From a virus, in the IMG/VR virus record IMGVR_UViG_3300029243_000160, positions 81,209 to 145,208 of that record: 64,000 bases of DNA; one strand, 5' to 3'. The position numbers and the translations under genes were made by a program. The number at the start of each line of letters is the position of its first letter. Position 1 is the stretch's first letter. Below the pieces are notes generated by a model, which did not search any database, was not told the origin of the DNA, and saw only the letters and a list, made by a program, of their open reading frames with translations. This document shows, piece by piece, positions 24,149 through 61,908 of the stretch.

Positions 24149-24177
24149 ATTATAGCACAGTAGTGTACAAATGTCAA
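24149..24177 (-). promoter_or_regulatory. Type-1 cassette promoter, box-less copy
   Basis: Carries the exact 30-mer ATTATAGCACAGTAGTGTACAAATGTCAAG (plus-strand text), which reads TTGACA-17-TGcTATAAT on the minus strand. Confidence 0.8.
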
Positions 24178-24243
24178 GTCGCTTAGATAATTCTGCATAT
24201 AAAAATCCATGTGATATTTGTCACTGTTTTTGTGCAAGTATAC

Positions 24244-24270
24244 AAAAGCCTGCTCCGTTACAGAACAGGC
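24244..24270 (-). terminator. Intrinsic terminator after the J-domain gene
   Basis: GCCTG..CAGGC stem plus a T-tract on the minus strand, followed by TTTGT-N8-ACAAA. Confidence 0.6.
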
Positions 24271-24277
24271 AATTATA

Positions 24278-25075
24278 TTACTTCTCTCTCAGCAAAATTT
24301 CTGCTGCCTTATTGATTTTCTTTGCATAATCATCTCCAAGCTCAGGGTGAATATCTGGGTGAAACATTCGCATCAGTTTCTTTTGCTGTTTTTTGATTTC
24401 TTCTGGAGAGCATTCCGTGTTTTCCAAGAATAAAACGCCTCTTGCCCATTCCATGTCCTGCTTTGATGCAGTCTTCTTTTTCACAGATTCTGCTTCCATT
24501 TCCTTTAGCTTTTGAATGTCTTGCAGTTTCTTCAAAATCTGAAATCTGGTATCATCTATCATCTGGTAGAATAAGCTGCGAAACATCGTCAGGCGTTTGG
24601 GTTCAGTCACGTCCAGCATTTTATCCTTTTTTGTGAACTCACAAGGCTCGTTCTCAGCTGCAATATATTCCGTTGCAACATTATCTGTCACAACCTTCAC
24701 TTTAACATTGCAGACAACCTTATTGGTATTCGTACCGATGTTGCGAATATCCGCACAGTAGATGCCTGTTTCTTTCAGCTCTGCAATGCTGAAAATATCT
24801 CCAAGGTCTGTCGGTTCGCCATTTTTTTCGTTTTTGCTAAAGCAAAACATACTGTGAACGCTGTCCAGATACATCGTTCCATAAGAAGATGTATTGCTGA
24901 ATATTTTCGCTTTCTCTTTTGCTTGCTCCACAAGGCGAATCAGATAATCTGCATCACAGGACTTTAAGTCAATGTGCATTGGAAGATACTGACGGCAGGC
25001 TTTGCAAACGCAGCCGTTATATGCTTTCTTTGCAAACATTCCAGCGTCCTGCTTGCAGATAATACATTCTTTCAT
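24278..25075 (-). CDS. Zn-ribbon protein with a C-terminal J-domain (DnaJ-like, HPD motif)
   Basis: N-terminal CIICK...CVCKAC. C-terminal KKLMRMFHPDIHPELGDDYAKKINKAAEIL. SD AAAGGAG. Starts 12 nt after the AAA+ gene. Confidence 0.8.
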   Translation of the reverse strand: MKECIICKQDAGMFAKKAYNGCVCKACRQYLPMHIDLKSCDADYLIRLVEQAKEKAKIFSNTSSYGTMYLDSVHSMFCFSKNEKNGEPTDLGDIFSIAELKETGIYCADIRNIGTNTNKVVCNVKVKVVTDNVATEYIAAENEPCEFTKKDKMLDVTEPKRLTMFRSLFYQMIDDTRFQILKKLQDIQKLKEMEAESVKKKTASKQDMEWARGVLFLENTECSPEEIKKQQKKLMRMFHPDIHPELGDDYAKKINKAAEILLREK

Positions 25076-25086
25076 TGGAATCTCCT

Positions 25087-26370
25087 TTACAGAACATTCT
25101 TATTAGGACTGGTGCTGACATCACAACCGCACAGGACAAATTTGTTTTGTGCCTTGTCTGTGATGATTTGTTCCTCTCCGTTGACAGTGATTTTTCTGGA
25201 GAGCAGGTTTTGTCCATAGTTCAGAGCGTGACGGTCAAGGCATTCGTCCAGAATGTTTCTGGCAGTTCGACCGTTGCCAAATGAAGAAAGTCTTCGTTCT
25301 CTGTCACATCGCACCTCAAAGTTGTCAAGAGCTTCCTGCGATACGATATAGCCCTTTCCGTGAGCCATAGCCTGAAAGATGTCTTTCATTTCTGTTGTGC
25401 TGTAGTCTGGGAACTCCAGATATTCTTTGATACGGCTCTTAAAACCTTCGTTGGTGTCCAGCAACCGTTTGATGTCGTTTTTGTAACCAGCCAGAATGAC
25501 AGTGAACTTGTCACGATTATCTTCCATTTCCTTAATGAGCGTTGCAATGACGGCTTTGCCATATTCCGCTGTACCGTCCATAATAGCATACGCCTCGTCA
25601 ATGAAGAGGACACCGCCATAGGCTTTCTGAATCAGCAGCTTTGTCTTTGTGTCACTCATTTCTCCGGCTTTCAAGAAGTTACCATCAATCTCGATACACT
25701 TGTTCTCTTTTATGTAACCGTACTTATAGAGGAATCCGGTTATAATTCTGGCAACCGTAGTTTTACCAGTACCAGCAGAACCATAGAACACAAAATGTCT
25801 GCCGTTCATGCCATACTCACTTCTGGTCTGCTTCTTTTCCTTTTTCTCTTTGGTCATTGCTTCACGTTCAAACTGCATTCTCGCAGCCATTTCAGTGACT
25901 TTCTGCTTCACCAGAGGTAGTCCAATCATATCCTGCAAATCTTTTTCCGGATTTCTGCTTCCTTCTTTGACAATCTTATTCATGACACTGGTAGGGAACA
26001 GCATTTCCATTTGCTGTAGTTTTTCCTTATCCATCTGTTCACGTTCTTTCCGAGTAAGTGTTGCATAATTGCTTTTCTTACTGTTGCCGAACTCATCGTA
26101 TTCATTGTCCTGAATTGCTTTCTGGTACATTTTCGCCAAAGGCTTTTTGAATACACCCCACTGAACCAAAGTGATGAAAAATACAATGCAGGAAATCAGC
26201 GGAACTTGTATATCATCTACCTGAAACGTACCGCCAAGCGGAATGATTGCAGTGTTCTTCAAGCGAATCATCTGATATAAAAACCAGACAACTGCCACAA
26301 TCGGGGCGGCGGTACTGAGCGTACTCAACAAAATTGTCAACGGATAACTGGTCTTCTTCTTTTTATTCAT
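25087..26370 (-). CDS. Membrane-anchored AAA+ ATPase, CbbX/SpoVK-type
   Basis: ATG26370 (MNKKKK) has SD GGAG. Two predicted TM helices are followed by FYGSAGTGKTTVAR (Walker A) and VLFIDEAYA (Walker B). Confidence 0.9.
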   Translation of the reverse strand: MNKKKKTSYPLTILLSTLSTAAPIVAVVWFLYQMIRLKNTAIIPLGGTFQVDDIQVPLISCIVFFITLVQWGVFKKPLAKMYQKAIQDNEYDEFGNSKKSNYATLTRKEREQMDKEKLQQMEMLFPTSVMNKIVKEGSRNPEKDLQDMIGLPLVKQKVTEMAARMQFEREAMTKEKKEKKQTRSEYGMNGRHFVFYGSAGTGKTTVARIITGFLYKYGYIKENKCIEIDGNFLKAGEMSDTKTKLLIQKAYGGVLFIDEAYAIMDGTAEYGKAVIATLIKEMEDNRDKFTVILAGYKNDIKRLLDTNEGFKSRIKEYLEFPDYSTTEMKDIFQAMAHGKGYIVSQEALDNFEVRCDRERRLSSFGNGRTARNILDECLDRHALNYGQNLLSRKITVNGEEQIITDKAQNKFVLCGCDVSTSPNKNVL

Positions 26371-26374
26371 TGCT

Positions 26375-26790
26375 TTACTCCATTTCTGATTGATACTTGC
26401 TGTATGCTGGTTGAAGCTTTCCGATAACGCTTTCATAATCCCTGCATTTTCGTATGTCCTGTTCCATGACAACGCTATTGAAATGGTCTGCAATGGTATC
26501 ACACAGGGAATGAAAAACGCTATCAAGATGTGGCGGTGTCCAGATGTCAGAACGGCACAGGAATACACCGTCAAACGCATAGCTCTTTTCTTCTATCTTT
26601 GAGAGATTTTTCTGAACGATGCCACGAAATGCCCTGTTTTCTTTTCTGTCTTTGTCTAAGCCGAACATCTCCAGTGACACCGGATTTGCAACCCAAGTAA
26701 GCCCCATATCATATTCTTTCAGAAGATGGGAAATCCAGTTGCCACAGTCAAGTTTTTCATTATCATTTACAATGTCGTGGTGCTTCTGAA
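26375..26790 (-). pseudogene. 5'-truncated paralog of the 27108-27839 gene
   Basis: In-frame similarity (HHD..LDCGNWIS..FGLDK..FLCRSD.WTPPHLD..RDY..LQPAY) to the C-terminal ~135 aa of the neighbouring gene. An upstream in-frame TAA cuts it off, and the N-terminal half is replaced by ORF 26763-26975. Confidence 0.5.
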
Positions 26791-60869: not shown

Positions 60870-61021
60870 GCAATTGCACACTCCTTTTCCAGCTCCTGAG
60901 CAGGCTTCTTTGCCAAAATCTCATCGCAGGAACGCTCACGCTGATACTTCTTGTCCAGTTCTTCCAGCTTGGCAGCAAGCTGTTCCTTTGTGAAATTCAT
61001 GAAATAATGTTCTTTCGTCAT
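60866..61021 (-). CDS. Possible 51-aa protein (below the ORF-track cutoff)
   Basis: ATG61021 with SD AAAGGAG. ATGA overlap with the downstream gene. First coding sequence after the long non-coding leader. Confidence 0.45.
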   Translation of the reverse strand: MTKEHYFMNFTKEQLAAKLEELDKKYQRERSCDEILAKKPAQELEKECAIA

Positions 61022-61079
61022 TTGCTATCTTCTCCTTTTAACAACATAATAAAAGCCCTCTGTTTCATCAGAAGGCTGT

Positions 61080-61158
61080 TGGTGTCCCCAATCGGGCTTT
61101 CACCGATACGCTTGCGGTGCATTCACCAAACCGCTTGTTCTACTTAAACTACAGGGAC
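61080..61158 (-). ncRNA. tRNA-like unit U0: 79-nt cloverleaf with an 11-nt 'anticodon' loop and encoded ACCA
   Basis: GTCCCTG|TA|GTTT-AAGTA-GAAC|AA|GCGGT-TTGGTGAATGC-ACCGC|AAGCGT|ATCGG-TGAAAGC-CCGAT|TGGGGAC|A|CCA. Confidence 0.45.
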
Positions 61159-61235
61159 GCAGTAAGGAAACGCTATGGCGAACGCTTCCTCGTTATGAAT
61201 TGACTGTTGCAAAGCAAACGGAGATACTTTGCAAA

Positions 61236-61315
61236 TGGTGTCTGAGGCAGGATTTGCACCAGCATCATTCGCATTGAAAATAATTTCAACTGCAATGATT
61301 TACTCGAACTCAGGC
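61236..61315 (-). ncRNA. tRNA-like unit U1: 80 nt, acceptor plus T-arm with one long bulged hairpin instead of D and anticodon arms
   Basis: GCCTGAG|TTCGAGTAAA|14-bp bulged hairpin with TTAT loop|T|GCTGG-TGCAAAT-CCTGC|CTCAGAC|A|CCA. Confidence 0.4.
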
Positions 61316-61393
61316 ATTGAGGGAGAGACAAAATCAAGGAGATAAAGAAAAACTCTCCCTCGTGATAAGGTATATGGTTTGTTATGACGCTGT

Positions 61394-61512
61394 TGGTGTC
61401 TGAGGCAGGACTTGCACCCACATTCTGTATCGTTTATCACTACATAGCTTCTCTCTGGTGTTGCAAATGGCTTTTTGCTCCAGCTACAGTGTTTTACTTA
61501 AACTACTCAGAC
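61394..61512 (-). ncRNA. tRNA-like unit U2: 119 nt, cloverleaf with a 55-nt segment (about 48 nt more than a normal 7-nt loop) in the anticodon-loop position
   Basis: GTCTGAG|TA|GTTT-AAGTA-AAAC|A|CTGTA-(55 nt)-TACAG|AAT|GTGGG-TGCAAGT-CCTGC|CTCAGAC|A|CCA. The 7-bp acceptor stem is perfect. Confidence 0.45.
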
Positions 61513-61842
61513 ACAAGACGGAGAAATGGATAAACTCCGTCTTGCAAATTTATAATAAGGAGATGATACGCACCACAAAGTCAAATGGGTAAAACATTGT
61601 GATACGCTGAGGATTGTTGTGCCAAATCGCAGGAGCGACCTGCTTTTCGGCATATGACAGGCTTTCACTGTCTCGCTGTGATTTCCACACATAAAAATAA
61701 GGAGTAAGCCCCATGGTGGGGTTGAAGAAAAATAATATAGGGGTAATGGGAAAAAATAAAAATGTTTCAGTACGCAGTTTTCACCGCAATACCATTGGGA
61801 AAAAATAGAGGAATGTGTAAGGTAGCGTTCCTTACATTGTTT

Positions 61843-61908
61843 ATTATAGCACAATGGTGTACGAATGTCAAGTGTTTTTGTGGATTTACTCTGTAAATTA
61901 TCCGTTAC
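61843..61908 (-). promoter_or_regulatory. Type-1 cassette promoter plus 24-bp box, driving the non-coding leader
   Basis: -10 at 61843-61848, -35 at 61866-61871, 13-nt gap, box at 61885-61908. Confidence 0.8.

Follow-up and report, generated by a model that had tools for sequence, protein, structure and literature searches.

Between positions 24149 and 61908 of the 64,000-nt window studied here (the whole stretch of DNA analysed, positions 81,209 to 145,208 of the IMG/VR virus record IMGVR_UViG_3300029243_000160), one 30-mer that reads as a strong minus-strand promoter recurs eight times, often with a second, 24-bp box at a fixed distance upstream. The question that this locus raises is what, beyond RNA polymerase, reads these repeated sequences, and whether reading them turns the promoters on or off. 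Judged from the sequence and from analogy with systems described elsewhere, we surmise that the cassettes make up an element-specific, repressor-controlled early-gene regulon of at least two motifs that would switch on after transfer, a reading that we consider probable by a modest measure. The kind of regulon is already known; what is new is the motif set, the conserved element within the promoter spacer and the phase-locked geometry.

Eight copies of the 30-mer (up to 3 mismatches) were found in the window, with 0 expected in 100 shuffles. The repeat noted in a preliminary description of this DNA is therefore genuine; six of the positions given there were exact, two had to be moved (35946 to 35938 and 51805 to 51804), and the diverged copies differ by 2-3 substitutions, not 2-4. 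All eight are minus-strand promoters of the form CTTGACA-17-TGCTATAAT, and the consensus for window and relatives together is TTGACA-N3-GTAC[A/T]C-N5-TG[C/G]TATAAT. Scored against TTGACA/TATAAT, seven of the eight cores reach 11-12 of 12 with a TGn extension, and the eighth reaches 10 of 12. Only 12 sites on both strands of the 64 kb come near consensus (at least 11 of 12 to TTGACA-16..18-TATAAT); seven of these are cassette cores, and of the remaining five, four have either an ATAACG motif or the spacer motif in a displaced position. The cassettes are all co-oriented with the genes, most of them after a terminator hairpin, and a Shine-Dalgarno sequence (SD) with a start codon lies 27-101 nt downstream of seven cores, the eighth (cassette 8) being followed instead by approximately 700 nt of non-coding, tRNA-like DNA. 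With these features the cassettes look like real promoters, as first proposed, an activity that we infer from their sequence. Among the genes so headed are a YodL-like open reading frame (ORF) behind cassette 3, whose -10 is TATACT, and a DUF5710-UvrD-PDDEXK helicase gene behind cassette 4.

Table 1. Promoter cassettes, boxes outside the cassettes and candidate regulator genes, in window coordinates.
Feature	Position	Strand	Composition and context
Cassette 1	24149-24178	-	Core CTTGACATTTGTACACTACTGTGCTATAAT, no box; heads RNase H-like ORF (start codon 24099)
Distal inverted repeat	24229-24270	-	TTTGT-N8-ACAAA 24229-24246, fused to terminator hairpin of preceding unit 24248-24270
Cassette 2	28569-28694	-	Core 28569-28598; box 28611-28634; distal repeat 28649-28666; terminator 28667-28694
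Cassette 3	33099-33223	-	Core 33099-33128; box 33141-33164; distal repeat 33179-33196; terminator to 33223
Cassette 4	35241-35356	-	Core 35241-35270; box 35283-35306; distal repeat 35321-35338; terminator 35342-35356
Cassette 5	35938-36037	-	Core 35938-35967, no box; distal repeat 36020-36037; heads sigma region 4/alpha-CTD gene
Cassette 6	45744-45809	-	Core 45744-45773; box 45786-45809
Cassette 7	51804-51869	-	Core 51804-51833; box 51846-51869; last gene of unit encodes 1053-aa dockerin protein
Cassette 8	61843-61908	-	Core 61843-61872; box 61885-61908
Candidate regulator	35363-35890	-	175 aa; sigma-70 region 4 and RNA polymerase alpha-CTD
Candidate regulator	61948-62142	-	64 aa, basic; weak ribbon-helix-helix-like features; last gene of unit ending at cassette 8
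Plus-arm promoter	4235-4278	+	ATAACGGA-N6-TTGACA-(GTAACGGATTGTTTGTGC)-TATAAT
Box before SD	4528-4551	+	After terminator; 5 nt before AGGAG of ORF at 4569
xis promoter with box	17200-17262	-	TTGACA 17262-17257; TATATT 17239-17234; box 17223-17200
Promoter with displaced spacer module	17440-17484	-	TTGACT-17-TGGTATAAT; TGTACACTACTGTGC just upstream of the -35
Promoter with abutting box	32675-32728	-	Box 32705-32728 next to TTGCAA-18-TATAAT; drives GmrSD-like gene
Box in coding sequence	39715-39738	-	Inside traX
traX promoter	40211-40266	-	TTGACA-17-TATAAT; box variant ATAACGGATATAAACATTCAGTAA(CGG) 3 nt upstream

Relatives were fetched with the helicase of the cassette at 35241 as query, and L014, L019, L020, L021 and L042 (helicase identity 73%, 71%, 67%, 64% and 64%) represent lineages B to F, all of which have the plan of core plus box in common despite this divergence. 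A comparison of 28 distinct cassettes representing five lineages shows little or no variation at TTGAC, GTAC, the C two positions further on, TG and TATAAT, and variable bases in between. At the orthologous helicase promoters of the lineages with 71-73% identical helicases (L014, L019), 27-28 of 29 core positions are identical, vs. 2-7 of 14 in the linker and 9-15 of the next 25 downstream; 12 paralogues likewise share a near-invariant core and a 13-nt linker that is constant in length and random in sequence. Since the cores remain identical at 27-28 of 29 positions next to random linkers, the spacer is held by selection and not by recent copying. The earlier contention that the spacer is conserved beyond the contacts of RNA polymerase holds across diverged lineages, except that the palindrome TGTACA, which it had included, is lost and the asymmetric GTAC[A/T]C is what is constrained. 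Searching viral contigs with the loosest degenerate core pattern gave many singletons (L022-L036), all of them without the box; most share one unrelated sequence, and they were taken to be unrelated.

The 24-bp box occurs ten times in the window (up to 3 mismatches; 0 expected), six times exactly 13 nt upstream of a cassette -35, and it is missing from the cassettes at 24149 and 35938, in agreement with the preliminary description. The dyad TTTAC-N3-GTAAA, which had been noted within it, is not conserved in related lineages; the constrained unit is asymmetric, with the consensus ATAACG-N8-ACAG-N2-TAA for window and relatives. Presence or absence of the box is inherited at orthologous genes, and box-less cassettes stand at orthologous genes in three lineages: the promoter of the RNase H-like gene (in lineage C at L019 13880) and that of the gene for a small protein combining sigma-70 region 4 with the C-terminal domain of the RNA polymerase alpha subunit (alpha-CTD; also in L014 and L019). 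In a non-redundant set, in which three spurious matches were corrected by hand, the distance from box to -35 is 13 bp in 17 cases, 12 in 3, 3 in 4, 2 in 6 and 0 in 1, and no case falls at 4-11. Linkers of 12-13 bp are found in lineages A, B, C and F and linkers of 2-3 bp in D and E, with both classes in E; the two classes are one helical turn apart, so that a protein bound to the box would have to face RNA polymerase or a partner bound to the spacer. Judged by its positions, the box is a separable module at stereospecific offsets.

A further module is the inverted repeat TTTGT-N8-ACAAA, of which the window holds five copies (0.34 expected), the number noted earlier, at a set distance from the 30-mer: four lie exactly 80 nt from the 30-mer start, the box-less cassette at 24149 among them, and one at 82 nt. 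Its half-site (TTTGTA/TTTGTG) resembles the spacer TTTGTACAC. In lineage D the repeat stays 14 nt from the box, and this constant distance means that the entire upstream assembly has shifted by one helical turn. In cassette 6, moreover, the spacer motif recurs exactly, in inverted form (GTGTACAAAT), about 60 nt upstream.

The box is also found away from the cassettes. It was located at all three places previously reported, i.e., before the SD of the plus-strand operon, downstream of the xis -10 and abutting the -35 at 32705, and three sites had been overlooked, namely the box within traX, the variant at 40243-40266 and the plus-strand promoter at 4235-4278. The latter has an ATAACGG-type motif twice, as ATAACGGA beside the -35 and as GTAACGGA in the spacer (4255-4262). 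At the xis promoter the box separates the -10 from the SD of xis (16985-17182), a layout repeated in lineage C (L019 17883). The arrangement box-N5-AGGAG is present at four independent genes: at 4528, at xis (lineage A and, with the offset a little shorter, lineage C), at the gene that follows the helicase (lineages B and C) and at L039 7399. The box inside traX is in frame (codons ITDNLQSN), and L014 and L019, lineages whose sigma region 4/alpha-CTD homologues are merely 37-49% identical, have the same codons with ATAACGGAT unchanged; the box variant before traX consists of two TAACGG repeats 21 bp apart, and the traX promoter has orthologues at L014 2692 and L019 2063. L037 and L038 are more distant (helicase 59-60% identical); they keep the ATAACGRA half of the box, but their -35 is TTGAAA (in the form TTGAAA/GTATA..ATACCAC), and the remainder of the box and the spacer have changed. 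Their xis promoter carries four ATAACGAA repeats at spacings of 10, 20 and 20 bp, all multiples of 10, together with an ATAACGA-A-TCGTTAT palindrome. Promoters with the spacer GTAC[A/T]C are confined to the minus arm, and the ATAACG box is found on both arms and with other cores as well. A regulon of a single factor, as initially proposed, is thus unlikely: no fewer than two motifs are distributed independently, next to an optional distal inverted repeat.

Two minor points about these sites may be added. The strong promoter with the displaced spacer module (17345-17484, minus strand) would give a transcript of about 100 nt or a short hydrophobic peptide without an SD, ending at a terminator; a small RNA and a gene resembling a type I toxin are both conceivable. 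No ATAACGRA is found within 14986-15579 next to int, which ruled out the box as an integrase arm site.

Recognizing these modules, we postulate that the cassettes would serve the early, establishment-type arm of the element as its main promoters. Each core would be a consensus promoter for a host sigma-A/sigma-70-type polymerase (TTGACA, a 17-bp spacer, TGnTATAAT) equipped with operator-type modules: 1) GTAC[A/T]C and the base at -13, inside the spacer; 2) the ATAACG-N8-ACAG-N2-TAA box; and 3) in a subset only, the distal inverted repeat TTTGTR-N-YACAAA, with its half-site resembling the spacer motif. DNA-binding proteins encoded by the element would occupy these modules and silence a dozen very strong promoters in the established state; where such repressors are absent or inactivated, e.g., in a cell that has newly received the element or upon induction, the promoters would fire jointly. 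Seen from RNA polymerase or the spacer-bound protein, the protein on the box would always occupy the same face of the helix, which accounts for linkers of either 2-3 or 12-13 bp. On its own, at the xis promoter, before SDs and in the spacer of the plus-arm promoter, the box would work as a roadblock or downstream operator. The earlier suggestion that xis/int and the plus-strand operon are repressed is consistent with the box being placed where a bound protein would repress.

Our preference for repressors comes from a matching operator topology in the Reg576 system, which has been dissected by experiment, of p576, a conjugative plasmid of Bacillus pumilus. Its TTATCCC repeats are positioned just ahead of the -35, just ahead of the ribosome-binding site and close to the spacer (PMC6294495). 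SPBRE/MrpR of phage SPbeta is a second precedent (PMC10516654). The p576 promoters repressed by Reg576 are strong sigma-A promoters that give a transient burst after transfer, in the manner of zygotic induction (PMC6294495). The likeness extends to strong extended -10 promoters, motif copies immediately before the -35, before the ribosome-binding site, in the spacer and inside coding regions, location in what is here a putative early or establishment block of a probably conjugative element, and even the motif itself, TTATCCC in p576 vs. TTATCCG on the antisense strand of the box. There are also differences, as evidenced by: 1) the p576 motif being a dual heptamer with a 2-bp gap, whereas the bipartite 24-bp box contains TTATCCG once and no dual heptamer; 2) four promoters in p576 vs. 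at least 12 per element here; 3) most boxes here lying one helical turn further upstream; 4) the extra invariant spacer motif and the optional distal inverted repeat; and 5) the host, here an uncultured Oscillospiraceae with an integrating element of approximately 130 kb. No homologue of Reg576 was detected in the present DNA.

The same study of p576 drew attention to repeated upstream regions before seven establishment units of pKM101 and to unexplained repeats on pLS20 (Val-Calvo et al. 2018; PMC6294495). In the pKM101 CUP/ArdK system, several early or leading-region units are each placed behind the same element with promoter and repressor sites; by description it is set apart in that the plasmid is Gram-negative, the repeats are far longer, and neither sequence nor proteins are related. 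In SPbeta, the 15-bp SPBRE is found in about ten promoter regions and is bound by the master repressor MrpR, which keeps the silent state (PMC10516654). The scale is similar, SPbeta being a large integrated element of about 134 kb and the present family having at least 12 cassettes in a 131-kb relative and 8 in the window, but SPBRE is a single 15-bp motif with a recombinase-fold repressor, and the element here looks conjugative rather than viral. No MrpR-like protein was found in the window; a 361-residue ORF beside xis, tried as an MrpR-like repressor, proved VapD-like, and the sole further recombinase-like ORF, a degenerate one of 368 residues in the relative, has XerA as its only PDB sequence match. 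Given these systems, the cassettes are not, in kind, the undescribed regulatory code that they had first been taken for, since the operator topology is that of Reg576 and repeated upstream elements are familiar from pKM101 and SPbeta. A comparable division of labor exists in IncP-1 plasmids, where KorA and KorB, two cooperating repressors, act at many strong promoters across a conjugative element from operators at defined positions, one overlapping the core and the other at set distances upstream; KorB is a ParB homologue that binds a palindrome. Here the motifs are unrelated to those of KorA/KorB, and the ParB gene next to the window is not linked to the box.

Several observations weigh against a repressor-controlled regulon of a conjugative element. 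That proteins bind the motifs, and that they do so to repress rather than to activate, we infer from the arrangement of the sites, the analogy above and the consensus cores. A box 60 bp upstream is unusual for a simple repressor and would need cooperation with a second bound protein. The distal repeat accompanies just 12 of 30 cassettes. Many of the genes driven are cargo-like (dockerin proteins, GmrSD), and some promoters are thus possibly constitutive when the element is integrated. As for the repressor itself, which in a regulon of the Reg576 type would be an autoregulated ribbon-helix-helix protein encoded in the block, the 64-residue ORF next to cassette 8 has no Pfam or PDB sequence match, and the best folds assigned to it are ribbon-helix-helix at E > 2. 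IMG/VR, moreover, lists the 131-kb relative among the viruses, which leaves the carrier only probably conjugative.

The proposal closest to the preliminary description is that of one dual factor, which would activate as a class I regulator from about -60 and repress xis/int and the plus-strand operon from the same box. Much of the geometry is in accord with it, i.e., the box center at about -60.5, the strict spacing with helical phasing, the alternative sites one turn closer and the boxes confirmed downstream of the xis -10 and next to the SD, and the conserved box-less promoter of the sigma region 4/alpha-CTD gene would suit an activator that has to be made first. The position expected of class I (CAP-type) activation, near -61.5, is close to that of the box, but the weak core that goes with it is not found: -35, spacing, extended -10 and -10 are already consensus, and the box-less copies have the same core. 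With cores at consensus, activation from -60 becomes less likely, and box-less copies conserved in three lineages and boxes 2-3 bp from the -35 elsewhere speak against it too. In addition, the conserved spacer motif and the distal repeat are left unexplained, so that more than one factor is needed; the TTTAC-N3-GTAAA dyad is lost in other lineages; and the dissected analogue of the same topology is a pure repressor (PMC6294495). We consider a dual factor unlikely.

Another set of possibilities centers on the unusual 175-residue protein encoded behind cassette 5. Both of its domains are backed by Pfam and PDB sequence matches and by a model with a predicted local distance difference test score (pLDDT) of 86, in which the C-terminal domain superposes on alpha-CTD with a target-normalised TM-score of up to 0.94 at about 33% identity; its recognition helix reads TKERIRQ, vs. 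TRERIRQ in sigma-70. An exhaustive HMMER search with this protein gave 385 proteins at E <= 0.001, several of them small (130-185 residues) and matching across both domains, and its gene is syntenic in lineages A-C, always behind a box-less cassette. One could envisage that this free-standing protein, together with a spacer-reading factor, sits on the -35/upstream half of a dozen consensus promoters and, phase-locked with the box protein, gates host polymerase for the entire element; we regard this as rather unlikely, and were it true, it would amount to a new kind of transcription control built from the DNA-reading modules of RNA polymerase itself. The narrower version, that the protein docks on the beta-flap, or on the -35 together with the DNA upstream of it, and thereby marks promoters for host polymerase or shields them from it, seems to us quite unlikely: the lineage C homologue (118 residues) has no alpha-CTD part and yet the same box and core are kept, no homologue was found in the sampled parts of lineages D-F, and sigma region 4 does not reach the motif at -26 to -21. 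A search with P0002 as query found no viral contigs, and the metagenome scan gave just unrelated alpha-CTD matches (L012, L013). For the 64-residue candidate, a homologue search returned one partial match only.

Uniformity might also be rooted in copying, with terminator-promoter modules being spread by recombination, shuffling blocks of genes, and kept alike by gene conversion rather than by a bound factor. The cassette at 45744 is indeed an exact mosaic breakpoint vs. the 131-kb relative (95-99% identity upstream, 100% in the core, approximately 60% downstream), inverted CTTACAT ... ATGTAAG arms flank four copies, and all copies of a lineage share the same -13 base. PeSL promoter/stem-loop cassettes of T4-type phages, in which an early promoter and a hairpin are placed at the boundaries of gene blocks, are occasionally recombination junctions as well. 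However, only one of the eight cassettes here is such a breakpoint; the paralogues lack a common linker or flank and are not recent copies; position and box status of the cassettes are inherited at orthologous genes; and the exact placement of motifs with free bases between them points to sequence-specific reading. Orthologous stability, a single junction and the additional operator-type modules distinguish the cassettes from PeSL. As a replacement for the repressor model we find module mobility very unlikely; it may instead add to it.

That the box itself is a promoter or loading site for an element-specific polymerase or sigma factor, with the cassettes as tandem promoters and the box-SD sites standing alone, is highly improbable in our view, because its length of 24 bp (comparable to promoters of single-subunit polymerases), its strong orientation with transcription and its frequent position right behind a terminator, 5 nt ahead of an SD and away from any other promoter, are set against the lack of a polymerase or full sigma gene among the approximately 90 ORFs scanned (window and related loci), of a DxDGD-type motif in the large ORFs, of any sense in helical phasing with a -35 for an independent promoter, and of almost any leader ahead of the SD if transcription began at the end of the box, which also occurs within coding sequence and in the spacer of another promoter. 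By eye, no consistent partner hexamer was seen that would make the box a second -35/-10 pair. A phage polymerase, YonO-like or other, was ruled out in the same scan, in which PHROGs and Pfam gave nothing for the large ORFs, the 1053-residue one being a dockerin surface protein. Promoters of the single-stranded DNA (Frpo) type known from leading regions, in which a strong hairpin rebuilds the -35 and -10, were ruled out too, with the DNA folds of three cassettes being unremarkable on both strands (z -1.4 to +0.6).

With respect to the carrier, the window encodes Tn916-type Xis/Int, a NikA-like relaxosome-type protein, TraX, an S26 peptidase, LPD-domain proteins, a CHC2 primase-like protein, dockerin proteins and many small ORFs; the neighboring DNA adds ParA/ParB, DNA methyltransferases and Lar-type genes, and loci of the 131-kb relative add an ERF recombinase. 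No type IV secretion system was seen in the window; more distant relatives have the coupling protein of such a system or PcfJ and end at Xis-Int beside host genes. We read the carrier from this gene content as a large integrating element of conjugative type from uncultured gut Oscillospiraceae, a phage being possible. The 131-kb IMG/VR contig is 84-99% identical over aligned segments and has at least 12 cassettes. Among 185,579 species genomes a single contig matched, from an Oscillospiraceae metagenome-assembled genome and orthologous to the cassette at 24149, which excludes the cassette as a generic host repeat, a check that the preliminary description had called for. One protein of the element is indexed in 538 blocks of a public assembly collection; megablast of 22 kb against phage and plasmid collections had no matches, and tblastn with the helicase found no phage and only distant actinobacterial plasmid matches.

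These results provide the transcription code of a family of very large and so far uncharacterised integrating elements; it could help to delimit the elements and their transcription units from sequence alone. The code predicts which genes would be co-induced, among them anti-restriction-type genes, helicases and dockerin surface proteins, and it offers natural variation in promoter-operator geometry, with linkers of 2-3 vs. 12-13 bp and a conserved spacer motif. If the repressor model is true, control of the zygotic-induction type would extend from a 43-kb Bacillus plasmid to elements of approximately 130 kb in gut Clostridia.

A number of side observations concern the units behind the promoters. 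Downstream of cassette 8, where a hairpin with a T-run starts no more than about 10 nt past the -10, the Rfam tRNA model under relaxed filters matches 61397-61512 (minus strand) at 32.8 bits vs. a gathering score of 29, although 57 nt are inserted into the anticodon loop, and again 61239-61309 at 21.6 bits; ARAGORN detected no tRNA in these approximately 700 nt, which hold no convincing ORF either, and the RNA-family scan of the window gave none at gathering score. A terminator also stands between promoter and first gene at 4279-4510 (plus strand), 61808-61836 (minus strand), L014 around 9750 and L019 around 8800, immediately in some and after approximately 230 nt in one, with a box and SD next in three; this suggests attenuation or a separate short RNA. 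Inverted arms of the form G(G/A)TACTTACAT ... ATGTAAGG(T/A)AC bracket four cassettes (the 45773/45809 flanks, L005 2278, and L007 3778 and 9274), and the arm element TGTAAG at about +1 is also kept in the distant L037 and L038. Two large secreted dockerin proteins are encoded as cargo downstream of cassette promoters (46618-49779 and 51970-54099, minus strand), one of them with BspA-type leucine-rich repeats.

The window as a whole shows extreme avoidance of 4-base restriction-type palindromes, with GATC (about 235 expected), CGCG (50), GCGC (72) and GGCC (78) at 0 and CTAG at only 8 vs. 44 expected. GTAC is not avoided (181 observed vs. 211 expected), by which it was ruled out as a methylation or restriction target. 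Finally, a diverged direct repeat (26481-26783 and 27214-27516; 73-74% identity, 733-bp spacing) joins the 5' part of an AAA ATPase gene with the next ORF and is single-copy in a close relative.

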